From Dictyostelium discoideum (taxonomy: Eukaryota), in contig CM000150.2 of assembly GCA_000004695.1 (NCBI GenBank), positions 4,032,001 through 4,096,000 on the forward strand: 64,000 nt of DNA, read 5' to 3'. Position numbers and translations under genes: made by a program. Below the pieces are notes generated by a model. That model was not told the DNA's origin and did not search any database. It was given only the letters and a program-made list of their open reading frames with translations. Shown in pieces: positions 2,417-57,294 of the stretch (position 1 is its first letter; each line of letters opens with the position of its first letter).

Positions 2417-6553
<4,137 letters not shown>

Positions 6554-19947: not shown

Positions 19948-20745
19948 ATGATAAGAAATTTAAAAAATTTAAATTTAGTTGGAAATAGATTTTATAGTAG
20001 TGGTGAAATTAAACATACAACAATTGTTAGTAATGGATTTGGTGGTATGTTAAATATTTTAGGTGAGAATCAACATGTTACATTTAATAAGATTGAATAT
20101 AATGCAGATGGTGATTATGCAATTTGTAAACATCAAGTTGAGAATAAACCATTCGAACCAACAATTGTAAGCAAAAAAGTATTTGAAAGTAGATTAACAG
20201 ATGCTCAAATTGGAGAGATTCAAAAACTTCGTTCAACCAATTCACAAAAACAATTAGCAGAGAAATTCCAAACTACACCATATATCATTTCACGTGTTTC
20301 AAGAGGTACACCAGAGAAACGTCAATCATTGATCGATCAATTCCTATTGAAGAATCCAAAAAAGATCGTAGATAGTGAAGATGTTAAAAAGAATCGTTTA
20401 CAAGATTGGTTCCAACGTAATCAACAAAGAGAATACGAACAAAAGGTTATCAAAGCTGCTACTTCTTTTGAACGTATTAAAAGACAAAGACATTCACTCA
20501 ATGCTCATAATCAACGTATTCATAAAGAATCTTATGAATTTGTTCAAAAATCTCAAATCTCTGAATCTGAAGAAAATCAACCAAGAGTTTTCACAATGGA
20601 AGAAAAGAGAGCAAAAGAAAAAGAATTATCAAAACTTCGTCGTAGAAAAGTTACAACTGAAAAAGATAAAATAAATGAAAGTAATCAACGTATTAAAAAT
20701 AAAACTGAGAGAAAGATTCAAAGAGAAGAACAAGGAAATAATTAA
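19948..20745 (+). CDS. Hypothetical basic protein. It has an N-terminal presequence-like region and an HTH-like segment ('LTDAQIGEIQKLRSTNSQKQLAEKFQTTPYIISRV'), and may be mitochondrial.
   Basis: It is a single ORF with an AAAATG start. The 'LVGNRFYSS' N-terminus and the Lys/Arg-rich C-terminus suggest an organellar nucleic-acid-binding protein. No family can be assigned confidently. Confidence 0.5.
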   Translation: MIRNLKNLNLVGNRFYSSGEIKHTTIVSNGFGGMLNILGENQHVTFNKIEYNADGDYAICKHQVENKPFEPTIVSKKVFESRLTDAQIGEIQKLRSTNSQKQLAEKFQTTPYIISRVSRGTPEKRQSLIDQFLLKNPKKIVDSEDVKKNRLQDWFQRNQQREYEQKVIKAATSFERIKRQRHSLNAHNQRIHKESYEFVQKSQISESEENQPRVFTMEEKRAKEKELSKLRRRKVTTEKDKINESNQRIKNKTERKIQREEQGNN

Positions 20746-21111: not shown

Positions 21112-22599
21112 ATGAATAAATTTGTTAGAGTTGGTCAATATGTTAAATCAAATTATCCACTTTATTTAGGTAGTAAACCAATTACAAAAACTTCATCAAG
21201 TTTAGAAGTTATTGATAAATTTACCAATGAAATTGCAAGTAAAATACCAATGGCAGATAAAGAAATGATTGAACAATCAATTGTTATTGCACAGAAAGCA
21301 TGTGAACCAATGAGACAATTATCAGCAGCAACCAAGAAACAAATTCTTTTAAATATTGCTAATGATCTTGAAAAGAGAGCAGATGAATTTGCTAAAGCAA
21401 TAGTTGTTGAAGTTGGTAAACCATTGGTTGATGCAAATGCAGAAGTTGGTAGAGCAATCGATACATTTACATGTGCAGCAGAGGAATCAATTCGTCAATA
21501 TGGTGAGCAGATTCCATTGGATATTTCATCACGTAATTTGGGTTTCCAAGGTATAACTAAAAGATTCCCAGTTGGTCCAATCTCTATGATTGCACCATTC
21601 AATTTCCCTTTGAATTTATGTGCTCACAAGATTGCACCATCGATTGCTGCTGGTTGTCCATTCGTTTTGAAACCATCAGATCGTACACCAATCAGTGCAA
21701 TGTTGTTGGGTGAACTATTGGCAAAACAAACACCACTCCTTCCAGAGGGTGCTTTCTCAATATTACCAACCACCCATCAAGATGCTTCCATTTTAAGTAA
21801 AGATGAAAGATTCAAGTTATGTTCATTCACTGGTTCACCAGCTATTGGTTGGAAAATTAAAAATGAAGCTGGTAAGAAAAAGGTGGTTTTGGAATTAGGT
21901 GGTGATGCTGCTTGCATCGTTGATTCTGCAACTCAACAATCAAGATTACCATCAATCGCTCAACGTATACTCTTTGGTGGTTTCTATTCTCAAGGTCAAA
22001 GTTGTATCTCTGTTCAAAGAGTTTTCATTCATGATTCACTCTATGATCAAATGAAACAACTATTGATTGATGGTGCTAAACCATTAATTCAACGTATGGG
22101 TGATCCAATGGATCCAACCACTTTTGTTGGTCCAATGATCACTGAACATGATGCTAAACGTGTCGAATCTTGGGTTAATAATGCTGTCTCCAAAGGTGCA
22201 AATGTTTTAGTTGGTGGTAAACGTAATGATCATTTCATGCAACCAACAATCTTGGAGAATTTACCATTGGATACTGAAATCTCTTGTAAAGAAGTATTTG
22301 GTCCTGTATTCTTTATTGAAAGATTCAATGATTTCAAACAAGTTGTTCAACGTGTAAACTCTTCAGAATTTGGTTTACAAGCTGGTGTCTTTACTGATGA
22401 TATTCATAAAGCCTACTACGCCTTTAACAATATAGAAGCTGGTGCTGTCGTTATCAATGATATCCCTTCAGTTCGTGTTGATGCTCAACCATACGGTGGT
22501 GTTAAAGAATCTGGTTTCGGTCGTGAAGGTATCAGACATACAATCGAAGAATATACTGAATTAAAATTAATGATTTTAAAAGATATTGGTAAAATTTAA
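21112..22599 (+). CDS. NAD(P)-dependent aldehyde dehydrogenase family protein
   Basis: ALDH signatures are present. These are the catalytic Cys motif 'FYSQGQSCISVQRVF', 'VVLELGGDAACIV' (the ELGG Glu box), 'FTGSPAIGWKI', the Rossmann 'GPISMIAPFNFPL..KPSDRTP', and C-terminal 'PYGGVKESGFGREG'. It is a single exon. Confidence 0.8.
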   Translation: MNKFVRVGQYVKSNYPLYLGSKPITKTSSSLEVIDKFTNEIASKIPMADKEMIEQSIVIAQKACEPMRQLSAATKKQILLNIANDLEKRADEFAKAIVVEVGKPLVDANAEVGRAIDTFTCAAEESIRQYGEQIPLDISSRNLGFQGITKRFPVGPISMIAPFNFPLNLCAHKIAPSIAAGCPFVLKPSDRTPISAMLLGELLAKQTPLLPEGAFSILPTTHQDASILSKDERFKLCSFTGSPAIGWKIKNEAGKKKVVLELGGDAACIVDSATQQSRLPSIAQRILFGGFYSQGQSCISVQRVFIHDSLYDQMKQLLIDGAKPLIQRMGDPMDPTTFVGPMITEHDAKRVESWVNNAVSKGANVLVGGKRNDHFMQPTILENLPLDTEISCKEVFGPVFFIERFNDFKQVVQRVNSSEFGLQAGVFTDDIHKAYYAFNNIEAGAVVINDIPSVRVDAQPYGGVKESGFGREGIRHTIEEYTELKLMILKDIGKI

Positions 22600-23931: not shown

Positions 23932-24308
23932 TTATTTTTTATTATTATTCTTTTTTGAATTCCTTTTTATTATATTTTTAAATAAAAAAATAAAAACATT
24001 ATAATTATTTATCCAACAATAAAAAAAGAATAAATAAATACTTGAAAATGTAAATATTAAAACATCGAATGAAATTGGTTTAATTTGAATAAAACTCATA
24101 GTTGCTTTTGTTGGTTGATAAAATTTTACAGTATTTTCAATCTCTAATGTACCAGTTTGAAAAATATCTATTACACAATTTAATTTGTCATTATATTCTT
24201 TAAATATTAATTCAATACCATTAATTAAATCAATTTTATTATTATTATTTTGATTATTTATAATTGTTTGTTTTCTATTTTCATTATTATAATTATAATT
24301 ATAATTAA

Positions 24309-24357
<49 letters not shown>

Positions 24358-24498
24358 TATTATTTCAATTGGTTTTAAAGGTTGAATATAAGGAAACATT
24401 AAATTTGTATTTAATAAAACTTGATACATTGATAACATTGATTGTTCATTTATATCTAAAGAAAATTCTAAAAGTTTTGATAAATCATTATTATTATA

Positions 24499-24539
<41 letters not shown>

Positions 24540-25974
24540 TAATATTATAAATATATGATAATAATGAGGATGCAATTATTTTTGTATTTCTTTTTAAGAT
24601 TGGTAAACTTAATTTTGAATTTGTTGATAAAATTCCATTTGTAGTTGGTGTTGAAAATTGTTTTTGTGTAATTGTCATTGAATCAATATGTTTTCTTGAA
24701 AAGATTTCATGTTTAAAATTAATTTTTGGATTTGAAATATCAATTTTCTTTTGAATGATTGTTAAATTAATATCATCATTTTTTGCAGAGAATTGGTAAT
24801 TTCCAACAAGATTTTTAATTTTTAATGATTTTGTTAATGATTTTGAAATTTGAAGATATAATTTATTTTCATCATTTATTAATTCTTTTTCATTTTCATT
24901 TTCATCTCCATCATCATTATTATTTTTAAAAGTTGAATATGATTTCATACCAATTGAATCAATACATAATACATGATCAATTGAATTTAAAAATGATTTA
25001 GATTGTTGATCAATCCATCTTTTAACACCAAATTCATTTAAACTTGATGCACCAACTAATGTAAATACTAAATTGAATGAAATTGGTTGTGTATTTGGAT
25101 TTGAATATAACATTGAGAAAACTCTTAATAATTCAAAGATTGCTATTGAATTACCATGATTATTAATTTCACCTGATAATGCAGGTATAATACTATACGA
25201 ATCATAACTTGCTAATATTACAATTGTTTTTAGTGGTTGTGATGAATTTAATGATGATCGTTTACATTTTAAAGTTGTTTGAAAATTATAAGAATTTGGA
25301 TTATTTATAATTTCAGGTAACCCTAATGAAATTAAAAATTTAAAATCATTTTGTTGTTTTGGTGTGATAATTTTATCTTTTGAAATTTGGTGGTATGCAT
25401 ATTTAATTAATTCTTCATATTCTTCTTTTTTTACAAAATAAATTGGTACTTTAATTTTAATTTTTAAATTACTTGTATAAATTTTATCATATTCTGTTTC
25501 ACTTAATAATAATTTATCAATATTATCATCATTTTCACTATTTTCATTATTTTCATCACGATTAGGTAATGATGATGATGTTGATGACGGTGATGATGAT
25601 GATGATTGAAAAGGTTCAGTTGAAATTTTAACAATTATTGAATCAACTTTTTTTGAATTTAATATTAAAATAGTATCAATATTGAAATCTGATTGATCAA
25701 CTATTACTGATTTTCCTTCATAATCTGTTGATTGATAAAATTGTTTTTGATAAACCATTAATGATGAACTTAGACTTGCTTTTGAAGGTCCATTGATTGT
25801 TGACCCATTTTTATATTGTAACATTCTATATGCAAATATTTTATTATTTTCATTTCCTACTCTACTTTTATGTAAATTAATATTTGAAAAAAATGATTTA
25901 CTTTCATTTCTTTCAATTAGTATTAATAAAAATAGTACTATTATTATTAAATATAAAAATGATTTATTTAACAT
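23932..25974 (-). CDS. Nicalin/nicastrin-like M28-fold type-I membrane protein (likely non-catalytic)
   Basis: The true start is ATG 25974; the listed start at 25998 is GTG. The signal peptide is 'MLNKSFLYLIIIVLFLLILIERNE'. The core 'VILASYDSYSIIPALSGEINNHGNSIAIFELLRVFSML' matches the 'AxYDSxGxxPxLSxGAxxNGSGxAxLLELxRxFSxL' pattern of nicalin/M28-like proteins. There is a C-terminal TM ('VLIFTFSSIYLFFFYCWI'). Poly-Asn inserts are present. The family call is from motif memory only. Confidence 0.5.
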
Positions 25975-26449
25975 ATTATTATTATTATTTAATTTCACAA
26001 AAATGAAAAAAATAAAAAAAAAAAAAATAAAAAAAAAAAGTAAAAAAATAAAAAAATAAAAAAAAAAAAAATAAAAAAAAAATAATAATATGTGTGTGAA
26101 TGAATTTACAAAATCGTGCTATTAATAGAATTTTTTTTTTTTTTATGAAATTAATTTAATCCAAAAAAAAAAAAAAAAGAAAAAGGAAAAGTTAAGATCT
26201 TAATTGTTTTTTTATTTGAAGAACAATCATTAGGGAATAAATTTAATATTAAAAAAGGTTTATAAAAAAAATTATTCCCTACAAAAATGGTATTCTAAAA
26301 ATTTTGATAGACAAAACATTTGTTTTATAAAAATTATTGTGATTAATTACTTGTAAATAATTTTTTTTTTTAAAAAAAAATATTTTATTATTTATTCTTA
26401 TTTATAGTTTTGCAATTACAAAATTTGCCAAAAAGATTTAAAAAAAATA

Positions 26450-26776: not shown

Positions 26777-27072
26777 ATGGAACCATCAATAGACAATAAA
26801 CCATCTTTTAGAATTAATTTTACAAAAATGCACGGTGCAGGAAATGATTTTGTAGTTTTTGAAAAAAATAAAGTTGAAAGATTAAATGGCGATAAATCAA
26901 CAGTGACCTTTGAAGAAATTGTTGGATTTACAACAAAAATAGCACATAGAAAATTAGGAATAGGTTTTGATCAATTAATTGTCATTGATGATAATCCAAT
27001 TGATAAAAATGCAGCATATGGTATGGATGTAATTAATTGCGATGGTAATATTGGTATGTGTGTTATTAAAAC

Positions 27073-27105
<33 letters not shown>

Positions 27106-27949
27106 TATATATTTTATTTAAATAGTTAACAAATCATAATTATATTTATTAAATAAAGAGGTAATGTGTGGAAATGGTGTTAGATGTTTTTCAAAATATA
27201 TAGTTGATAATAAAGTTTTATCAAAAAATTTAAAAGAACAATTAAATTTTGATGGTGACGATGATATTGAACAAATTATTGAGACTAAATCAGGTATTGT
27301 CAAAACATATCCATTATTAAAACATCATTTAAATAATAAAGATAATGATGTTATAATGGTGAAAGTTAATATGGGAACACCAAAAGTTTCAAGATTTATT
27401 AACGAAATCGATCGTCATATTCCAAAAGTTTTAACAAATCAATCACCAATTGAGAGTTATATGTATACCATTGATATCGGATTACCATACTGTTCAAAAT
27501 TAGAATGTGTTTATGTAACAGTTGGAGGCAACCAATGTGTTGTATTTATCGATAGAAATATTGAATTGGGTTATTTAGATTCTTCATATGGTGATCATAC
27601 AAAATTCTCAACAATTGATTTTAAAGAGATTTCAGATATTATTCAAAGTAATGTAAATGGTTTTGATGATATTCCAAATGTTGAATTTGTAATTCAATCA
27701 CCACAAGATAAACTTGAAAATAAAGTTATCTCAAGAGTTGTTGAAAGAGGTAATGGTGAAACATTAGCATGTGGTACTGGTGCATGTGGTGTAGCAATAT
27801 CATCAATTCTCAAAGGTTATTGTAATGAAAATACTGAAATTACTGTTGAAATGCCTGGTGGTAAATTATTAATTCAATGGAATCCAAATAATGAAATTTT
27901 TAAAACAGGTCCAGCAACATCTGTCTTTAAATCTCAAATTTTAATTTAA
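26777..27949 (+). CDS. Diaminopimelate epimerase (DapF-type), copy 1. Exon model is join(26777..27053,27159..27949).
   Basis: It aligns along its whole length to bacterial DapF. 'FTKMHGAGNDFVVFE' matches 'FSKMHGLGNDFMVVD'. 'KLGIGFDQLIVID' matches 'HLGVGFDQLLVVE'. 'INCDGNIEVMCGNGVRCFSKYI' matches '[22 protein letters not shown]' (first catalytic Cys). 'VNMGTP' and 'GNQCVVFIDRN' are present. 'VERGNGETLACGTGACGVAISS' matches '[22 protein letters not shown]' (second catalytic Cys). 'EMPGGKLLIQW' matches 'ELPGGRLDIAW'. A phase-1 intron (GTATGT donor at 27054, aaag acceptor at 27158) splits the DG..E|xMCGNG motif. Confidence 0.8.
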
Positions 27950-28149
27950 ACTTAAAATAAAATCATTCACTAATTTAATTATTATTATTATTATTATTTT
28001 TTTCTCAACTAATTCTCAAATTTATGGAAAATTTTTTTTAAAAAAAAAAAAAAAAATCCAAACCAGGGCAATTCCATTGCGCAATCTTTTTTTAAACAAA
28101 AAAAAAAAAAATAAAACAATTTTCAATTTCCAATTTTTAATTTTATTTT

Positions 28150-28186
<37 letters not shown>

Positions 28187-28238
28187 ATTGGTCATTATTT
28201 CGATTGTTATCTTTTAAGTTAATAATAAATATTTTAAA

Positions 28239-29396
28239 ATGGAACCAATATTAATTACAAATAAGCCATCATACAGAATTAATTTTACAAAAATGCAAGG
28301 TGCAGGAAATGATTTTGTAGTTTTTGAAAAAAATAAAGTTGAAAGATTAAATGGTGATCAATCAATAATGACCTATGAAGAAATTAGTGGATTTACAAAA
28401 AAATTATCACATAGAAAATTAGGAATAGGTTGTGATCAATTAATTATTATTGATGATAATCCAAATGATAAAAATGCAGCATATGGTATGGGTGTAATTA
28501 ATTGTGATGGTAATATTGGTATGTATATGTGTGTAAAAAAAATAAACCAAATTGAATAATTAACATAAATATATTTTAACAATAAAATATTTAAACAAAT
28601 AGAAAATATGTGTGGAAATGGTGTTAGATGTTTTACAAAATATATAATTGATAATAAAGTTTTATCAAAAAATTTAAAAGAACAATTAAATTTTGATGGT
28701 GATGATAAAATTGAACAAATTATTGAGACTAAATCAGGTATTGTCAAAACATATCCATTATTAAAACATCATTTAAATAATAAAGAAAAGGATGTTATAA
28801 TGGTGAAAGTTAATATGGGAACATCTAAAATATCAAGATTAATTAATGAAATTGATTATAATATTCCAAAAACTTTAAGTAAACAATCACCACTTGAAAG
28901 TTACATGTACACCATTGATATTGGATTACCATACTGTTCAAAATTAGAATGTGTTTATGTATCAGTTGGTGTTAACCAATGTGTTGTATTTATTGATAGA
29001 AATATTGAATTGGGTTATTTAGATTCATCATATGGTGATTTCTCAAAATTCTCAATGATTAATATTCAAGAGATTTCAGATATTATTCAAAGTAATGTAA
29101 ATGGTTTTGTTGATATTGCAAATGTTGAATTTGTAATTCAATCACCACAAGATAAACTTGAAAATAAAGTTATCTCAAGAGTTGTTGAAAGAGGTAGTGG
29201 TGAAACATTAGCATGTGGTACTGGTGCATGTGGTGTAGCTGTAGCTTCAATTCTCAAAGGTTACTGTAATGAAAATACTGAATCTATTGTTGAAATGCCT
29301 GGTGGTAAATTATTAATTCAATGGGATTCAAATAACAGTGAAATTTTTAAAACAGGTCCAGCAACAACTGTCTTTAAATCTCAAATTTTAATTTAA
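28239..29396 (+). CDS. Diaminopimelate epimerase (DapF-type), copy 2, a tandem paralogue. Exon model is join(28239..28518,28603..29396).
   Basis: It is colinear with copy 1 and has the same motifs ('FTKMQGAGNDFVVFE', 'MCGNGVRCFTKYI', 'GETLACGTGACGVAVAS'). The intron is in the identical position and phase (GTATGT at 28519, acceptor aaatag at 28602). Confidence 0.8.
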
Positions 29397-30614: not shown

Positions 30615-30865
30615 TTAATTTTTATTAAATTTTTTTAATTTAGTGGCATGTAAAATTACTTTAATTGTTGTACTTTTCTTATAAAGTGTAACTAATACGA
30701 CAACAATAATTGATACAACTACTACTGGTACAACAATAGCCACTGGCAATATCCATTTCTTTGAGTTACTATCATCACATTGATTTTTGAAATCACTATC
30801 TACTAAAACTGAAAAATCTATTTATAAAATATATATACATATATTAAATTTAGTATTTGTATTTT

Positions 30866-30915
<50 letters not shown>

Positions 30916-33900
30916 TATATATAATAATCATACCAGGATCAACAACACATTCATTTATACAATGTGGTAAATTTAATGTAATAATAATTGAATTTGAATC
31001 AGTTTTTGAAGTTGTTGAAAAGAAAGTTGGTCTTGAATCAGAGATTACTTTATTAATAAATCTACCAGCTAAAATTTTATTATTTTTTGAAATTTTGATA
31101 TAACTAAAAGTGGATTGATCATTAATATTTGTTGTATCAATTTCAGTATTTTTTGTATTACAATCTTCATTTTTATTAATTTGATCAACTGCTGATATTA
31201 AATCCAATTGTAGTGTATTTAAAGTACTTTGATAAGTATAATTTGTAATTGAAATTGTGAATTTAATAGAACCAGAATCTACAATGAAACTTGTATTGGC
31301 AAAAGTAAATTGTTTACCTTTCTCATCTTTAATCTCCTCAATAATAGTTTTTACAATGCACCCATTTAAAGTACCATTAATGAATTGTTTAAATTCATAA
31401 ATATTTGATTCTTTACTTTCAGTATTATTAAATGACCAATTCTTTAATAATGGATACTCTTTCACAACATTATTATTAAAATCAATTTCTTTTAATGATT
31501 TAAAATAAATTTGAAATTTAGTTTGATTATCTAAAATATTTGTTGAGCCTGATCCTGTGTCAATTGTTGTGTTAACACCTGCATTGTTATTGTTATTATT
31601 ATTATTACCATTTCCATTGCCAACACCATTTGTATTAATTACAGCACTACAATCATATAAAGTAAAACCTGAAAAACATTTACAAATTCCCGTTGTGGTA
31701 TTACAATTACCATTATTTGAGCATTTATTTGGACATTCAATTGTTGGATTTATATATTTAAAAATGTTATTACCAACATAGGTATAATCATTTTGAGTTA
31801 TTGTTACATTTTTAATACCACTACCTTTTGGTGCATTACATTTAATTACAGAACTTGAATTAAATATAATTGGTAAACATGGTTGATCACCGATTTTAAC
31901 TGATAAATCAGTATGTTTTGTACCAAAAAATCCATATAAACTAATTTCACCACCATTTATAGTTGTAGAATCAGAAGATGAGATATAATGGTAGGCTGAT
32001 GAACAATCATTACCAAACCATTTACCAATTTCACAAGAACAAATACCATTACTACTATCACATATACCTTGATTAGAATTTGTACAATTATTTAAACATT
32101 GATAATAAGGTACTTCACAAACTCCTGTTGACAAATTACAAATTCCAATTGTATCATTACAATTATTTGGACATTGAATATTATTTAAAAAACCAGGTTG
32201 AATTTTTATATAATAATTACTTGTTAAATTACCAACTGTGATTTGGAGTACATTTAAATCAATTGCAAAATCATTGGTGTTTGAAAATGTGCAATTTACA
32301 TGGGCAAAACTTGTTGAATCAAAATCACATGGTACCCCATTAACTTTAATAGATTGATATGAGTAACCCATATAACTTGATAAGAACTCACCATTAATTG
32401 ATAAAGTTGTTGGTGTTTGAAATATTGTTGATAATACTATTGGGAAAGTATAGTTATCTCGTGTTGGGAATGTTATAACTTGACTAATTGGTTGTGAAAA
32501 TTCAATATCAATTCGATCACTATTAGCATACATATTAGGTGTTACAGTATAAATTAAATATTTTTTACCATAAACTATTGTCAGTTGGCCTGAGCTTGCC
32601 TCGATTTTCCAATTGCTTGGTTCATAACCAATATCATTTCCATAGATTAAAATACCTCTTGTATCACTATAAACATCAACTCTTGGTGCAAATGTTGTAC
32701 ATTTTAGATTTCTATTTAAATTTTTAAAATTATTACCAAGGAATCTATCATACATTGATGGGAATCCTGCAAATGATCCACTTGCTGGTGCATTAAAATA
32801 ACATGAAAAACAACTTGGTATTTCACCTTCCATTTGATTATTTGTTAAAGAAATTTGTGTACCACACCAACTTGGATCAATTGTTGATGTAATATTATTA
32901 TTTGAGAAATCAACTAAATAATTTGTTGAATTATATACACCTAATGGACCAGGGCCAATTGAATTATAAATGAAGAGGTTTTCCTTACCAAATTGACTAA
33001 ATGGTTGAACTGATGATATATTACAATTGTAAAATTTAACTTCAACATTTGATGGATAAATAAATGGAAATCTACCATCAATATTCAATGAATGTGCTCC
33101 AAATATTGATAATGTATGTTGACTTTTAATTGATCTTAAATCAATAACACTTGTTGGTCTTTCAACATCACCTTTTACTGTTATATATGAATATTTGGGT
33201 GAAGTTTGTGATACAACTGATAATGGTATTACAATTCCATTTTCAGATGATATAAAAAGTTGAAAACTTGTGATTGTATTTATTAAATCAAAATTACCTA
33301 AAAAACATGAAGATATTGTTAAATTTAATTCGACCAATTTTGGTAAATTTGTAAAATCTATAAAATTACAAATTTCTAATTCTAATACAGCCAATGAATT
33401 TAATGGTCCTATTAAATCATTTTCCAATTTAACAGATGATCCTGATATTTTAAATGCTGTCAATCCTTGTAAAGATGATAATTTTAAATCTGGTCCTAAA
33501 TCTGTTTCAATAATCTCTCTATTTTCAAAAAAAATAAAAATAAAAATAATAATAAAAAATTATAAATTAAATTAGAAAACCATTATAATAATTAAAATAA
33601 TAGTAAGTAATCTTACATTGATTGATATTGCGGCATGGGTGTTAATAAAACTGATTCATCTATAAGGAGATTCATTATAATTTTTCTATAAATAATTGAA
33701 ATACAAGATAGTTTAGCTTGAAAAAAGGTTTTTGTAATTTCAAACCCAGTTAAATCTCTATTTAATAAAAAAAATTAAAAATTAAAATTCTAATCATATT
33801 TTGTATAAGTAATATTAATTCATACAATGTTACGAAATTACCAAGGCATGTGAATTGTGTTGGGTCTAAAATACCTTGTGTTTTATTACTTGCAATTAAG

Positions 33901-50407: not shown

Positions 50408-53400
50408 TTATTCATCCATTTCATTATCTTCTTCTTCATCTTCATCTTCATCTTCAATTTCAGCAGGTAAAATATTAATATTTAATTCATGTTCTTGATC
50501 ACAACCATTATAAGAATCAGAGAAAAGATAAAGTGATAATTGATGTTTACCAACAGCAGGAGTTGGGAATTCAAATTTAACCTTTGTTTTCTTTAGGAAA
50601 GTGATTCTTTTGATTGCTAATAAATGATTATTCTTTGAATCACCAATTAAAGCCCACCAACCACAAATCTTTTCTTTTGGATAGTAAGGAGCAGAGACAA
50701 CATTGATTGAATCATTGATTTCGATTGGGTTTTCTTCATCATCACCTAAATCTCTTTCGATAACCATTTCAACCGTCATAATTGAGTCAGCATGTAAATC
50801 ATCTTCATCTTGAACTTGATAGGAGATATCGATATCAGGATATTTCATAAAGGATTGAACGAGATCATTTGATTCTTGTTGTGAGAGATCTAATAACTGT
50901 ATACGACTATTGTCATCCAATGACATTAAATCGAAAACACTTTCAATACCTTGAGATGTGATTGCATCGATACGACGTTTATTCATATGTGGTAATTGTT
51001 TGAAAACACTATCACTATCCCACATTGCTTGAGTGATCATTTGAGATAATTCCATAGCAGCAATTGCAGGTTGTAACCAACTATTACTTGAGATAACATC
51101 CACAATCGCTTGAAGTAAACGAGTTGCATTCTCTAATATGAATTTCTGATCTTGATAAAGGTCAGCAGAGATTGATTCTCTACTGAAATGACATTGAAGA
51201 AGTACATTAACTTTGGTTGAAATCTCTTGATAGTTTGGCTTATCAATCTTTTGAGGTAAATGTGAAGCTAGTTTCATCAAAATTTGATCCTCACGATGAC
51301 GAATTGGTAAAGAGTTAAACTCTGGTGCATTTGAAATAATATCCATGATACCTCTACGACGAGTGGTTGACTTTAATGATGAACCAAACAATTCGATAGT
51401 TTGATATTTAAGATAGTAATAACTTGCAATGATACCTAAATTCAATGGGGAAACTTTATCTTGATCGTCTTGAATGGTGATACAATTTGATTGTTCTAAC
51501 TCCACCAATGTATTTTCAACCAATTCTGAAAGATGTTCAGATAGATGTAAATGTGATACACCGGATAGATTGTAATAATTTGGGTTTTGATTTAAACGAC
51601 GATATAAGAAAGTCCAAGTTAGGTAATCCAAAGCATCTTGTTTCTTTGTGATGGTTTTAGTTACAATCTCTGAATTGAATTGATCATGTAAACAATGATC
51701 TAAATGTGATTCAACTGGTAATGGTTCATTTAAAAACATTTTGTAATACTCTTTCTTTGGTGCATGACATAGTAATAAAACTTTGGCAACTTTATTACTA
51801 ATGACACCACCACCCTCTTGTTTGCCAGCACGACCAATCATTTGTAGGATATCATTGATTGGATAATCAATGTATCTAATGTCTTTGCCTTGATATAATT
51901 GTGTACCCATAATAACTACCAATTGTGCAAAAACATTATCTAATAACCATGCGACTGAATGAGTTGCAATCAATACTCTTATTGAACCAGATCTAAATAG
52001 AATTTCAACTACACGTCTTTCTCTTTCGGTTAAACCATCATGATAGAATGCAACACCCATTTGAAGTGATTGTTTCAATGCAAATGAATCAACATCCTCT
52101 AGATAGGGTGTCAATACATGTTCTTCACAAACTAGATATGGTTTAGTTAAAGTATCCTCGAATGAACTAACATTTGCAATGATATCGGCTGCTAATGATC
52201 TTGATAACTTTCTTGTTGGTACGAATACAATTGATTGTTGATTCTTATTTTTGGCAACTTCATAAACTGTTGGTTTTGTCATTGCCAACATTCTTGCATT
52301 GAAATGTGGGAATTCGAAACCTTGAATTTGATATTCCACTGGTATTGGACGAACATTTGGATGGAAATTATAACAAGTTTGTGGTGTTGCACCAATCCAT
52401 AATACTAAATCTCTAGCGTTGGCAATGGAAGAGGATAAAGCAATCACACGAAGTGCATTACCAGTTTGTGTTGAAATGTAACGCATTCTTGAAACGACAA
52501 TCTCCATTGTTGGACCATATTCACCACCAATTAAATGTAATTCATCAACAATCAATAGATTGATAGATTGTAAAGCTTTACGTTGTTTCCATTTTCTAGA
52601 GAGGATATCCCATTTCTCACAATTTGTAACGATAATATTTGAACGATCTAAAATTTTATTATCAGTAACTGCATCACCAGTTAAATCAGAAACTACCAAA
52701 CCAAATGGTGATTTCACACCAAATTTGTTTGACCAATCCTTTAATCTAACAGAAGCTAAATCTTGCATTGGTGCTAAATAAACAACCTTTGCTTTTGGAT
52801 TTTGTTTGAAACATCTAATCAAAGCAATCTCTGCACAAACGGTTTTACCACTATTGGTTGGTGCAGAAATGAATGCATTATCATTGGATTGATACATACA
52901 ATTGAAGACTTGAGTTTGAATTGCATTGAAAATGGAGAAAGTTGGCTTAAAGATTGATTCAGCTTTTGGATCTTTTAAAACTTGAATTGGTAATGGTTGA
53001 AGATCTAACAAAGGTCTACATGGTGGATATTTCTCTGGTAAAATTAAATGTTGGAAACTGATTGGTAATGAATATTCTGCACCAATCCAATGATCACTAA
53101 TAACACGTACATAATATTGTGGTGGTAATGGTTGTGATAATGGTACGGTGAAACTAACCAATTGATCCTCACCATTGACCATCTTTTTCTTTAATGAGAA
53201 ATACTCAAAGTATAGAATTCTCTCACCATCCACATCCTCAACTATAATCCACCAACCGATTGAATTGTTATGATAACGTTCATCATACTGAAAATCGGGA
53301 GTAATTGATAATTCAACCCTTAAAAGGCCATGTAAAATTGGTTGAACATGTGCAGTTAAATCTAATTTTGGGAAATTATGAATTAAATCGAATAATTGTT

Positions 53401-56400
53401 TACCTTCGGATGGATTTTGAATTGCATTACCAAGTTGTTGAGAATTATATTCGTAGAGATCTTCAATTGGGATACCTCTTCTCTCGAGTTGATTCAATAC
53501 TTTTGGAGAGATCTTGTGGAATTGACGTAGTGGTGATTGTGATGACCACATTTTACTATCGATCATTTTTGCAAGGTTAAGTATTTTCTTTGCCAATTGT
53601 GCCCAACCTTTCTTTAGAACAATTTCAAACAATGCTCTTGTAATACGTGATGCAGATTGTGCAATATAAAACATATCGACCACCAATGCAAAACCATCCA
53701 ATTTCAAATTACTAATATAGGTTTGTAATAAAACATTGATCTTTGAGGAAGGTTCTTCTATATTCTCTTTGATTGGAATTGGTACACGTTCTAGTAATTT
53801 CTCTAATTCGAATTTTTCACCCTCTCTAACAACGACATTTTTAAATTCTGAAGAGAGTGAGAAAACACGAAGTAATTCGATATCAGACATTGAAGGTTTC
53901 AAATGTTCTTGATAGATTGACATTGATGAATTGGTGATATAATAATGTGATGCGACTTTACCCAATTCTGTCGATTGTAATTTACCTGATTTTCTATCAT
54001 ACTTTATGAGGGAATTCTTTTCTAAAATAGTTGCAGCTGAATGAACTAAATCTAGACGACGTTGTTCCAACAATGGGTCCTTTTCAAAGTCATCATAGGA
54101 TATCTCGTAAAGTGGTGGATTTCTAATCATACAAATGTAAAGATAAGTATAGCCTAACCAATTTACAGCATCACGTACGGTTTGAATTGAACCCAATACA
54201 ATCTCTGCATTTAAATTATCGGCTATTCTACTAATGAATTGACTCTCGATTGAGAGTTGAGTATTTAACAAAGAGAGATAGAATTGAAGTTCATGTTGAC
54301 TAGTGATAATTATACCCTCACCTTCTTTATCAAAAGGTGGACGACCTGCTCTACCCAACATTTGAGTTACATCCAATGGTGATAATTCACACCAACCTTT
54401 CTCTGGATTATAAATTTGTGTACCTTTGATGATTACAGTATGTGCTGGTAAATTTACACCCCATGCTAAAGTAGCAGTTGAAATGAGTACTTGAATTCTA
54501 TTATCCCCGAAAAGATCTTCAACCAATGAACGATCGGATCTTGATAGACCAGCATGATGTATACCAATACCATAGGGTAAAAGATCTTTTAACTCTGCAT
54601 TTTGAATTTGTTTTGATGCTGTTGCTCTCAAGATCTCTCTAGATGCTGGATCTCTAATATATCTATCTATCGATTGATCTTCGACGGCACGATCACGTAA
54701 ATCCTTACCTGTCTTTGCAGTTTCACGACGAGAATGAACGAAAATTAATATTTGATGATCACCAACTCTTTCTGATACTTTTGTGAATGTAATGTCATTG
54801 CAACGTTGTAATTGTTTAATACCTCTATCAGAGATACCAATGTATTGTTGCTCCAATGGTATTGGTCTATAGGATGAGTCAAAGTAGAACACACCATCGG
54901 GTTCAACACGTAAAAAGGTTGCAACATCTTCATAGTTTGGTAATGTAGCTGATAAACCAACCAAACGTACCATTTGTTGAGTTGATTCAATCATACGCAA
55001 TGTTCTTGCAACGATGCACTCCAACACAGGTCCTCTTTCATCATGAAGTAAATGAATCTCATCGATAATGATTAACTTCACCAATTGAGTGTATGCACGG
55101 TCACCTGACTTTCTAGTGATAATATCCCATTTCTCTGGTGTTGTCACAATGATTTGAGTCTCTGAGATTTGTTTATTAGTTAATGATTGATCACCAGTGA
55201 GCTCATTCACTACGATGCCATAGGATTTCAAACGTTTACTGAAATTACCCACCATCTCCTGTACGAGTGATTTCATTGGTGCAATGTAAACAATCTTAAA
55301 GGCATCCAATCTGATCTTACCACTATCTCTATCACGATTCTTTCCAATTTCATGTAGAATAGTTAACATTGCAACATTAGTCTTACCACTCGACGTTGGT
55401 GCACTCAACAATAAATTATTATCAGTCTTGAATGCACAATCAAATAATTTACTTTGAACTCTATTTAAACTCTTTACACCAGACTCTTCAAATGGTAATC
55501 TTGACCATTCTGGTAACTCCTCAATCGATATCAAACGTTCATTTGGATTAAATGGTGGATTTGCTCTTGCTGGTACATGAATCTCTTCAAATCCTTTATA
55601 TTGTTCACGTTTACTACCTTTTGGAAATTTAAATTCTTTATTTGTCATTAAATGACTACCTTGTTGAAATGATAATTCTTCTAAATTTAATAATTTTTTT
55701 GGTTTTTTAATTTCATCTTGTTGTTGTTGTTGTTGTTGTTTCATTTCAACATCTTTTTTATTTGATTCTGTTTTTTCTATTGTTTTTTCTGTTGTTGCTG
55801 CTGTAACTTCATTACCCTTTAATCTATTCAATATACTTAATGTTACTGGATTACTTGACATTTCATCTTCAATTTTTTTTCTTTCTTGATCGTTCTCTGC
55901 TTTTGCTAATAATGTACAATATAAAACTAAAAAAAAAAAAAATGTTAGTAAAAAAAAATTAATAAATTTTAATAAAATCAATTTGAAAAAAAATACTTAC
56001 TAGTTTGTTTATTATTTATAATTAATTTTAAAAAATCTAATTTATCAATTGTAAAAAGGTCAACTAATTGTTGTTCACATCTTCTAACATTTGGTTGACG
56101 TAAAATATTTAAAGTTTTCTCTGCTAATTGTTTTGATAAATCATGATCTCTTTCAAATTCACTAATTTTTCTTTGAATCCAAAATGAATCGATTTCATTT
56201 GGACTAATTAATTTACTATTATTATTTTTATCATCTTTTGTATTTTTTGTATCTGGTTTTTGTGATTTATTATTATTATTATTATTCTCTTTAATTTTTT
56301 GATTTTCATCATCATCATTATTATTTTCATCTTTAGTTTGAATTTCAGAATCTTGAGCTTCACTATCATTATTATTATTATCATCAACTTCATTATTATC

Positions 56401-57294
56401 AACATCATCATCATCATCATCATCATCTCTAATTTCAAAATCACTTAAATTCTCTTCTTCCTCTTCTTCATCAATAATGACAGCAACACCTTGCTCATCA
56501 TCTAAAGAATCCATTGATTGTTGTTGTTGCTGTTGTTGTTGTTGTTTTGCTAATTCGCTATCTTTGAAATCTGTAATTTGTTTACCAAGTTGAGTTAATT
56601 CAGCAAATGATACATCATTTAAACCTTTTAATAATTTTGAAATTTCAATTTTCTTTTCAGGTGCACGAATTGTATCGTCCTTTAAGATTGATAAAATTTC
56701 ATCCAATGCGCCTTTAACGACTTCAGTTGGTTGATCACCAACATAACGTTGAATAAATGTTAATAATGTTTCATAGGTTATACGAGTTTCTTTGGTTTTT
56801 GGTTTATATAATCCTTGAAATGATTCAGTTGCTGATAAAATATCAATTGGTTTTTCATTATTATTATTACCATTGGATTTTCTATTGGTTGATTTCTTTT
56901 CCAATGGATTTTGATTCTTTACTTTTTTAGTGGTTGAATAGGTATCATTGGATGAATTTACATCACCACCTTCCTTTTCAATGGTTTTTCTCTTTAAATT
57001 TTGCATCTTTTCTAATAATTCCAAAGGTTTTGAGTAGTTAACTCTATCTCCCATTTCACCTCTTAATCTACCCCATAATGTTTCTGGTTCACCCTTTGGT
57101 TCTTTTAATTCACTTCTATTTCTTTCTGAATAAAATACTAAATTTGAATTCTAAAAAAAAATAAAGAATAAAAATAAAAATAAAAATAATTAAAATTAAA
57201 ATTTATAAGTTGAGAGTTAAAAAAAAAAATAAAAAAAATAAATACTTACTTCTTTATATCCATATTGTTTTGATCTTGCTAATTCTTCAGACAT
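50408..57294 (-). CDS. brr2: Pre-mRNA-splicing helicase Brr2 (U5 snRNP 200 kDa helicase, SNRNP200 homologue). Exon model is join(57250..57294,56001..57150,50408..55926).
   Basis: It is colinear with human SNRNP200 throughout, with two Ski2-like helicase plus Sec63 cassettes. Shared blocks include 'EELPEWSRLPFEESGVKSLNRVQSKLFDCAFKTDNNLLLSAPTSSGKTNVAML', 'IVTTPEKWDIITRK', 'TATLAWGVNLPAHTVIIKGTQIY' and 'SIGWWIIVEDVDGERILYFEYF'. Exon 1 'MSEELARSKQYGYKE' (human 'MADVTARSLQYEYKA') is followed by GTAAGT. Exon 2 begins 'NSNLVFYSERNRSELKEPKGEPETLWGRLRGEMGDR' (human 'NSNLVLQADR...EPTGE..GTRMGDK'). A phase-1 intron (GTAAGT at 55995-56000, acceptor at 55927/55928) precedes '..ILYCTLLAKAEN'. Confidence 0.9.

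Follow-up and report, generated by a model that had tools for sequence, protein, structure and literature searches.

What does an amoeba that needs lysine from its food, makes no peptidoglycan and eats bacteria do with two adjacent genes for a bacterial-type diaminopimelate epimerase (DapF)? The question is raised by a 64-kb window (the whole stretch of DNA analysed, to which all coordinates refer) of chromosome 1 of Dictyostelium discoideum AX4, a 4.92-Mb chromosome-scale record. Positions 26777-29396 of this window carry two head-to-tail genes on the forward strand, DDB_G0270030 (gene 1) and DDB_G0270032 (gene 2). Our best overall explanation, which we hold at a probability of roughly 55%, is that the pair encodes DapF-type enzymes that salvage the LL- and meso-2,6-diaminopimelate (DAP) of bacterial prey towards lysine, perhaps with an altered specificity. 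The genes and their predicted function are already in public annotation, because UniRef names both proteins 'diaminopimelate epimerase' and a 2008 whole-genome microarray paper (PMC2474670) lists chromosome-1 features of the family PF01678, one named 'diaminopimelate epimerase' and another 'dafE'; the annotation itself is thus unsurprising and no new discovery. An earlier prediction, made from the letters of this stretch (the original prediction), had described the pair and proposed several roles for it: its observation is confirmed with small corrections, and its interpretation is partly supported.

The products of the two genes, deduced from spliced models that we built from the sequence, are proteins of 355 (gene 1) and 357 (gene 2) amino acids that match exactly XP_646484.1 (Q55CJ7) and XP_646485.1 (Q55CJ6), respectively. 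They are 85.7% identical to each other, with coding sequences that are 92% identical, and the introns and flanks of the two copies are only ~59-60% identical. In the Pfam search that had been proposed as a check, the sole match of both proteins at E <= 0.01 is DAP_epimerase (PF01678; 107 bits for gene 1 and 103 bits for gene 2, cut-off 34.7), and against the TIGR00652 DapF equivalog model both score 155 bits (cut-off 114.65) over model positions 1-268 of 270. A hidden Markov model (HMM) made from bacterial sequences only likewise aligns each of them as one domain, over model positions 3-277. The end-to-end alignment with bacterial DapF that had been claimed is obtained only with ~80 extra residues relative to the 274-amino-acid bacterial enzymes, placed in several lineage-specific insertions, most of which are common to other dictyostelid homologs. 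Among proteins of solved structure, the best sequence matches are all DapF (from 4.7e-31), and every significant one is DapF except its homolog DcsC. The AlphaFold2 model of gene 1 (predicted local distance difference test, pLDDT, 91.9; predicted template modelling score, pTM, 0.90) adopts the two-domain pseudo-symmetric DapF fold, and the top 26 chains found with it by Foldseek in the Protein Data Bank (PDB) are DapF save two DcsC chains (E ~1e-26, TM ~0.8, target-normalised). Taken together, these results predict that the gene products are two-cysteine amino-acid epimerases with a DapF fold, independent of pyridoxal 5'-phosphate. Identity with PhzF (PF02567), which the original prediction had listed among its options, or with proline racemase (PF05544) was rejected: Pfam gives PF01678 only, and the structures of those families rank behind all DapF structures (Foldseek E 1e-15 to 1e-17 vs 1e-26). 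Since the N-terminus extends only ~12 amino acids past the bacterial start and has no obvious targeting peptide, both proteins are probably cytosolic.

The active site is largely that of a DAP epimerase. Residues are numbered here as in H. influenzae DapF, with roles taken from PMC8225329, which cites the H. influenzae structures. On careful alignment, and as had been claimed, both catalytic cysteines are kept in both proteins, in the motifs MCGNG (Cys73 equivalent) and ACGTG (Cys217 equivalent); they correspond to Cys96/Cys297 in gene 1 and Cys97/Cys298 in gene 2, in columns that are invariant across 103 sequences. Asn11, Gln44, Asn64, Gly74, Asn75, Asn190, Glu208, Arg209, Gly218 and Thr219 are also conserved in both genes, exon 1 of gene 1 carrying GAGNDF (Asn11 equivalent), DQL (Gln44 equivalent) and INCDG (Asn64 equivalent). 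In this way, the residues that bind the reacting stereocentre (Asn11, Gly74, Asn75, Gly218 and Ser/Thr219) are all present, as are five of the six distal-site residues (Gln44, Asn64, Asn157, Asn190, Glu208 and Arg209), the one lost in both genes being Asn157. The statement about the cysteines, right as it was, hid the real departure from canonical DapF, namely the loss of the motif Asn157-Pro158-His159, which the original prediction had missed.

It had also overlooked a third D. discoideum paralog, DDB_G0289455 (Q54HH7), which lies on another chromosome, retains the canonical motif S-M-G-N-P-H and shares ~50% identity with the window genes. Judged by these features, DDB_G0289455 is probably the true DAP epimerase of D. 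discoideum, or the best candidate for it, and the tandem pair belongs to a divergent clade and has itself lost Asn157, a distal-carboxylate ligand, and His159. D. purpureum has two homologs, one of each type, and our searches returned one each from P. violaceum, Acytostelium, Tieghemostelium, Heterostelium and Cavenderia. The closest relatives found outside the dictyostelids are those of the amoebozoans Clastostelium and Ceratiomyxa (protosteloid or myxomycete-like). In a neighbour-joining tree (107 sequences, 272 columns, 100 bootstraps; Ceratiomyxa was aligned but left out), the Dictyostelia (bootstrap 100) group with Clastostelium (99) apart from the bacteria, which argues for a long presence of the gene in this lineage. 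The tandem-type clade (98) is restricted to the genus Dictyostelium and sits on the longest branches, its attachment within the Dictyostelia having a bootstrap of 11-23, and the canonical paralog has been kept in every species that has this clade. The TIGR00652 scores drop stepwise along this history, from 300 bits in bacteria to 235 in Clastostelium, 215-221 in the early-branching dictyostelids, 191 in the canonical paralogs of the genus Dictyostelium, 170 in the tandem-type gene of D. purpureum and 155 in the window genes. In a profile search, Clastostelium (420 bits) was followed by a bacterial sequence as the best other match (269 bits), a gap of ~150 bits. With regard to the bacterial donor, the nearest non-amoebozoan sequences are metagenomic and the named matches are spread over several phyla. 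The closest of all, on a metagenomic contig, sits in a lysA-dapF-dapA operon, and another near metagenomic sequence adjoins an aminotransferase; given that operon, co-transfer of dapF and lysA into an amoebozoan ancestor may be worth testing.

The introns tell the same age. In both window genes a phase-1 intron separates ..NCDGNI from E-x-MCGNG, just as had been described from the letters; it does not split the catalytic motif, as had also been stated, but adjoins it, two codons 5' of MCGNG. An intron at this site is also present in DDB_G0289455, both D. firmibasis genes, the D. purpureum tandem-type gene, P. violaceum, Heterostelium and Cavenderia. It is in phase 0 in most homologs, DDB_G0289455 included, and in phase 1 in the tandem-type genes of D. 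discoideum, D. citrinum and D. firmibasis, the difference being an unambiguous 1-nt shift of the intron site. Tieghemostelium and the canonical copy of D. purpureum lack it. Because the site is common across the dictyostelid groups, the intron, and hence the gene, is older than the dictyostelid radiation; this and the tree bear out the proposal of an old acquisition followed by duplication. The canonical-type gene of D. purpureum (DICPUDRAFT_155352) has a different intron, between ..GAGETL and ACGTG, right before the second catalytic cysteine. The intronless gene of Tieghemostelium lacteum (DLAC_11075), the sole DapF homolog found for this species, has a ~70-amino-acid Gly/Ser-rich low-complexity insertion, and Asn replaces Arg209, which forms the salt bridge with the distal carboxylate.

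What, then, would such enzymes do? The locus holds two intact nuclear genes whose ancestor, a bacterial-type dapF, was present in the lineage prior to the dictyostelid radiation. In the case of gene 1, Cys96 and Cys297 would take the alpha-proton off one stereocentre of DAP and return it, interconverting LL-DAP and meso-DAP. Since Dictyostelium is a bacterivore that depends on its diet for lysine and has no peptidoglycan of its own, the DAP most likely comes from digested prey, both from cell-wall stem peptides and from cytoplasmic pools, and the meso-DAP would pass to a dictyostelid DAP decarboxylase (LysA) to yield lysine. The lysine auxotrophy that had been invoked agrees with the literature, where lysine is essential for Dictyostelium and a major nutrient signal (bioRxiv 10.1101/227983, citing Marin 1976 and Franke & Kessin 1977). 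Scavenging is made plausible by the reported decarboxylase, as Dictyostelium and Polysphondylium sequences appear in the tree of EC 4.1.1.20 (DAP decarboxylase) of PMC3846528 and PMC3287585 lists UniProt D3AYE6 as a complete DAP decarboxylase from an amoebozoan. The idea put forward in the original prediction is thus plausible, but it was already in print: for the bacterivorous stramenopile Leucomyxa, DapF and DAP decarboxylase have been proposed to turn LL/meso-DAP from food into lysine (PMC11528492), so that published accounts of the salvage concept exist for other protists and phagotrophs. Within this frame, the tandem pair probably differs from the canonical paralog in affinity or specificity, because Asn157-Pro158-His159 is lost and the two copies have Gly and Val, respectively, at the Asn157 position, and a DAP-like substrate is the most likely one because 11 of the 12 DAP-contacting residues are kept. 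If salvage is indeed its role, the DapF/LysA route would turn the cell walls of bacterial prey into a source of lysine, and offers a testable case of 'you are what you eat', in which acquired bacterial genes shape the metabolism of a predator. Dictyostelium is genetically tractable, and DapF has been studied as an antibacterial target.

Nevertheless, several points weigh against salvage of DAP by this pair: (i) Asn157-Pro158-His159 is invariant in 85/85 bacterial and 13/13 other amoebozoan sequences, and S-M-G-N157-P158-H159 has become T-V-G-G-N-Q in gene 1, S-V-G-V-N-Q in gene 2 and S-C-G-G-A-H in the D. purpureum orthologue, in an alignment that is gap-free at this motif and on which MAFFT and the independent bacteria-only HMM agree. 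Asn157, which together with two other asparagines hydrogen-bonds the distal carboxylate of DAP (PMC8225329), is Asn in 98/98 sequences outside the clade. His159, which PMC3581254 places among the catalytic residues of PDB 1BWZ beside Cys73, Glu208 and Cys217, is Gln in both window genes and His in the D. purpureum orthologue and the 98/98 others; its loss may bear on catalysis, although only if the listed role holds. (ii) The window pair has the lowest TIGR00652 score of all the amoebozoan homologs (155 bits vs 191 for the canonical paralogs and 215-235 for the others). (iii) Between gene 1 and gene 2, the ratio of non-synonymous to synonymous substitution rates (dN/dS) is 0.51. (iv) The peptidoglycan of Gram-negative prey already provides meso-DAP, a form that the decarboxylase takes directly, and an epimerase is needed for LL-DAP only. 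(v) The DAP decarboxylase partner is reported in the literature only, and our literature search found no enzymology, knockout or isotope tracing for any dictyostelid DapF.

Altered specificity arising from a remodelled pocket is a serious alternative. Here DDB_G0289455 alone would act on DAP, and the tandem pair would be neofunctionalised paralogs that epimerise or racemise another prey-derived substrate, with stem-peptide DAP, amidated DAP, lanthionine, hydroxy-DAP or another D-amino acid as the candidates; we consider this possible, if on balance improbable. The loss of Asn157-Pro158-His159 is specific to the clade, and the copies even differ from each other (Gly vs Val) at position 157; the clade combines the longest branches with the lowest DapF HMM scores; a canonical paralog persists wherever the clade occurs; and the dN/dS of 0.51 between the copies suggests relaxed or diversifying constraint. 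There is precedent too, as the DapF homologs DcsC (PDB 7vdy) and PddB (PMC8225329) use other substrates. Against this stand the 11 kept DAP contacts, among them three to the distal carboxylate (Arg209, Asn64 and Asn190) and two to the distal amine (Glu208 and Gln44), whereas PddB has replaced Gln44, Asn64, Asn157, Asn190 and Arg209. Moreover, the D. discoideum group has an Asn one position further on, at 158, that could compensate for the loss, and both proteins still score above the TIGR00652 equivalog cut-off. A narrower and more doubtful version would have the pair represent a Dictyostelium-specific clade with a remodelled distal pocket that acts on a prey cell-wall derivative of DAP, which could be the free D-centre of stem-peptide DAP or amidated DAP, and not on free DAP. 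Were this so, social amoebae would have gained a dedicated step for dismantling or detoxifying peptidoglycan fragments, beside the canonical DapF/LysA salvage. Whichever holds, the clade-specific loss is a natural experiment on the contribution of Asn157 and His159 to substrate recognition.

That the pair might instead be decaying, functionless duplicates, the remnants of an old transfer, is very improbable and largely refuted. The loss of the catalytically annotated His159, the same ratio of 0.51 between the copies and the lack of a published function in the literature we searched would fit such decay. However, reading frames and splice sites are intact in both genes, and the annotations of four further D. 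discoideum/D. cf. discoideum assemblies and of D. citrinum likewise show two such genes side by side. The AlphaFold2 model is confident and its fold complete (pLDDT 91.9). Against the D. citrinum orthologues dN/dS is 0.11 for gene 2 and 0.20 for gene 1, and against the single D. firmibasis gene 0.22 and 0.28, respectively, compared with 0.14 for orthologues of the canonical paralog. Because these values for the window genes fall between 0.11 and 0.28, both are functional and under purifying selection, somewhat relaxed in gene 1; with the intact open reading frames (ORFs) in many strains, the same values rule out pseudogene status. One seeming exception, D. citrinum ACTFIV_000310, whose annotated 341-amino-acid model lacks MCGNG, is an annotation error caused by a wrong splice acceptor: splicing the genomic sequence at ..TTAAAG|AG restores E-M-MCGNG, and the gene is intact. 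Finally, a chromosome-1 PF01678 array feature gave signal in growing cells (PMC2474670), being detected in Klebsiella-fed cells and lower with P. aeruginosa PA14 (log2 -1.06). Supplementary files 1 and 3 of that paper list two such features on different version-1 contigs, DDB0190752 (unnamed) and DDB0189351 ('dafE, diaminopimelate epimerase (Fragment)'); neither is mapped to DDB_G0270030 or DDB_G0270032, and a further chromosome-1 PF01678 fragment is possible. A literature search on the three D. discoideum DapF gene identifiers or 'dafE' found no study of these genes.

The history of the pair can be outlined from the same comparisons. A duplication within the Dictyostelia gave rise to the canonical copy (DDB_G0289455) and to a faster-evolving copy, the latter being duplicated in tandem later, in the D. 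discoideum/D. citrinum lineage; the tandem-type locus is single-copy in D. firmibasis, where it is syntenic, and in D. purpureum. Synonymous divergence (dS) between the paralogs of one species (D. discoideum 0.14, D. citrinum 0.10) is below that between orthologues of different species (~0.3), which indicates that gene conversion is still taking place between the tandem copies. Over codons 106-150 and 256-285, gene 1 and gene 2 hardly differ. As for the arrangement of the genes, the direct tandem that had been described is correct and the distance of 1.3 kb given with it is not, the starts lying 1,462 bp apart (Table 1).

Bacterial contamination or an assembly artefact, for which the bacterial affinity of the nearest relatives outside Amoebozoa is the sole point in favour, is refuted by the spliceosomal introns of both genes, their Dictyostelium-typical base composition and codon usage, the eukaryotic neighbours on either side, the synteny of the locus in independent assemblies of several species and the drop of 150 bits from the amoebozoan sequences to the best bacterial match. 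The genes are thus resident in the eukaryotic genome, as the original prediction had held from the introns at a shared site and the AT-rich flanks, and its claim of Dictyostelium codon usage is matched by exons with 25-28% GC and 90% A/T at third codon positions, the introns and flanks having 9-14% GC.

Table 1. Features of the tandem DapF locus, other genes of the window and homologous loci discussed in the text (positions in the 64-kb window; those of homologous loci carry their own label)
Feature	Position	Strand	Remarks
Gene 1 (DDB_G0270030) exon 1	26777..27053	+	codons 1-92 and first base of codon 93
Gene 1 intron	27054..27158	+	105 nt, GTATGT..AAAG, phase 1, 9.5% GC
Gene 1 exon 2	27159..27949	+	stop codon ends at 27949
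Gene 1 Cys73-equivalent codon	27167-27169	+	
Gene 1 altered motif	27518-27535	+	T-V-G-G-N-Q
Gene 1 Cys217-equivalent codon	27770-27772	+	
Intergenic spacer between tandem copies	27950..28238	.	289 bp, AT-rich, 13.8% GC
Gene 2 (DDB_G0270032) exon 1	28239..28518	+	
Gene 2 intron	28519..28602	+	84 nt, GTATGT..ATAG, phase 1, 14.3% GC
Gene 2 exon 2	28603..29396	+	stop codon ends at 29396
Gene 2 Cys73-equivalent codon	28611-28613	+	
Gene 2 altered motif	28962-28979	+	S-V-G-V-N-Q
Gene 2 Cys217-equivalent codon	29214-29216	+	
ComC-like gene	4099-6378	+	
ORF without Pfam match	19948-20745	+	265 amino acids
Aldehyde dehydrogenase	21112-22599	+	PF00171, 441 bits
ORF without Pfam match	23932-25998	-	688 amino acids
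ComC-like gene	30818-33463	-	
Brr2/SNRNP200-type spliceosomal helicase	50408-57054	-	split over ORFs of 1857 and 358 amino acids
DDB_G0289455	L002:3001-4170		canonical paralog
D. citrinum locus	L011:6001-8551		compared with the window genes
D. citrinum ACTFIV_000310 (P0004)	L011:6001-7143		
D. purpureum DICPUDRAFT_155352 (P0010)	L007:2001-3155		canonical-type
T. lacteum DLAC_11075 (P0017)	L008:2001-3167		
Closest non-amoebozoan DapF (P0023)	L012:1739-4813		Logan SRR22387992

The neighbours of the pair in the window are eukaryotic: RasGEF, aldehyde dehydrogenase, ComC-like, PTPA, HMG-CoA reductase, Brr2-type helicase and SF3a60. The order aldehyde dehydrogenase-DapF-ComC is kept in D. citrinum, with a tandem pair, and in D. 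firmibasis, with a single copy. Both ComC-like genes of the window have ComC supersandwich, LRR_ComC, TIG and EGF domains, one of them lying immediately downstream of the DapF pair. Two ORFs without a Pfam match flank the locus; the longer lies between the aldehyde dehydrogenase gene and the pair, and in the corresponding place D. firmibasis has a gene of 881 amino acids that also lacks a Pfam match. Near 55980, a short intron presumably joins the two ORFs of the spliceosomal helicase, or else a frame change separates them. The window has no tRNA genes and no other lysine or DAP gene; nor does any such gene, a DAP decarboxylase included, lie beside any dictyostelid DapF locus examined.

How does the tandem pair compare with known systems? 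With bacterial DapF (H. influenzae 1BWZ/2GKE, E. coli 4IJZ) it has in common the two-domain fold, Cys73/Cys217 in MCGNG/ACGTG, the reactive-centre and most distal-site residues, and a score above the TIGR00652 cut-off. It differs in that identity is ~30%, with ~80 amino acids of insertions and Asn157-Pro158-His159 replaced, and in that the genes are nuclear and intron-containing, in a host without peptidoglycan that is a reported lysine auxotroph. Canonical dictyostelid DapF, namely DDB_G0289455 and the single-copy genes of Cavenderia, Heterostelium, Acytostelium and P. violaceum, is of the same amoebozoan lineage (bootstrap 99-100) and has the same insertions and the same intron site just 5' of MCGNG; in contrast to the window genes, to which it is ~50% identical, it keeps S-M-G-N-P-H, scores 191-221 bits with TIGR00652 (vs 155) and has its intron in phase 0 (vs phase 1, the 1-nt shift). 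Arabidopsis chloroplast DapF (PDB 3ejx) is another nuclear-encoded eukaryotic DapF, with a similarity to the query comparable to that of the bacterial enzymes (1.3e-28), but it works within a complete DAP pathway in the plastid, carries a transit peptide, keeps the canonical active site and reportedly derives from cyanobacteria (PMC3518814). DcsC, an O-ureidoserine racemase (PDB 7vdy), and PddB, a 2,4-diaminobutyrate racemase (PMC8225329), have the same fold and cysteine pair and changed substrate through remodelling of the distal pocket; in PddB, however, Gln44, Asn64, Asn157, Asn190 and Arg209 are replaced together, whereas in the window genes only Asn157 is, with Pro158 and His159. A further comparison is with Leucomyxa plasmidifera (PMC11528492) and Herpetomonas muscarum (PMC3846528), eukaryotes that eat or host bacteria and have the last two DAP steps only, the upstream pathway being absent. 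Their genes differ in origin, that of Leucomyxa being the remnant of a plastid pathway and that of Herpetomonas a Bacteroidetes-like transfer, and the two papers make no mention of the paralog expansion or the loss of an active-site motif that set the Dictyostelium pair apart.

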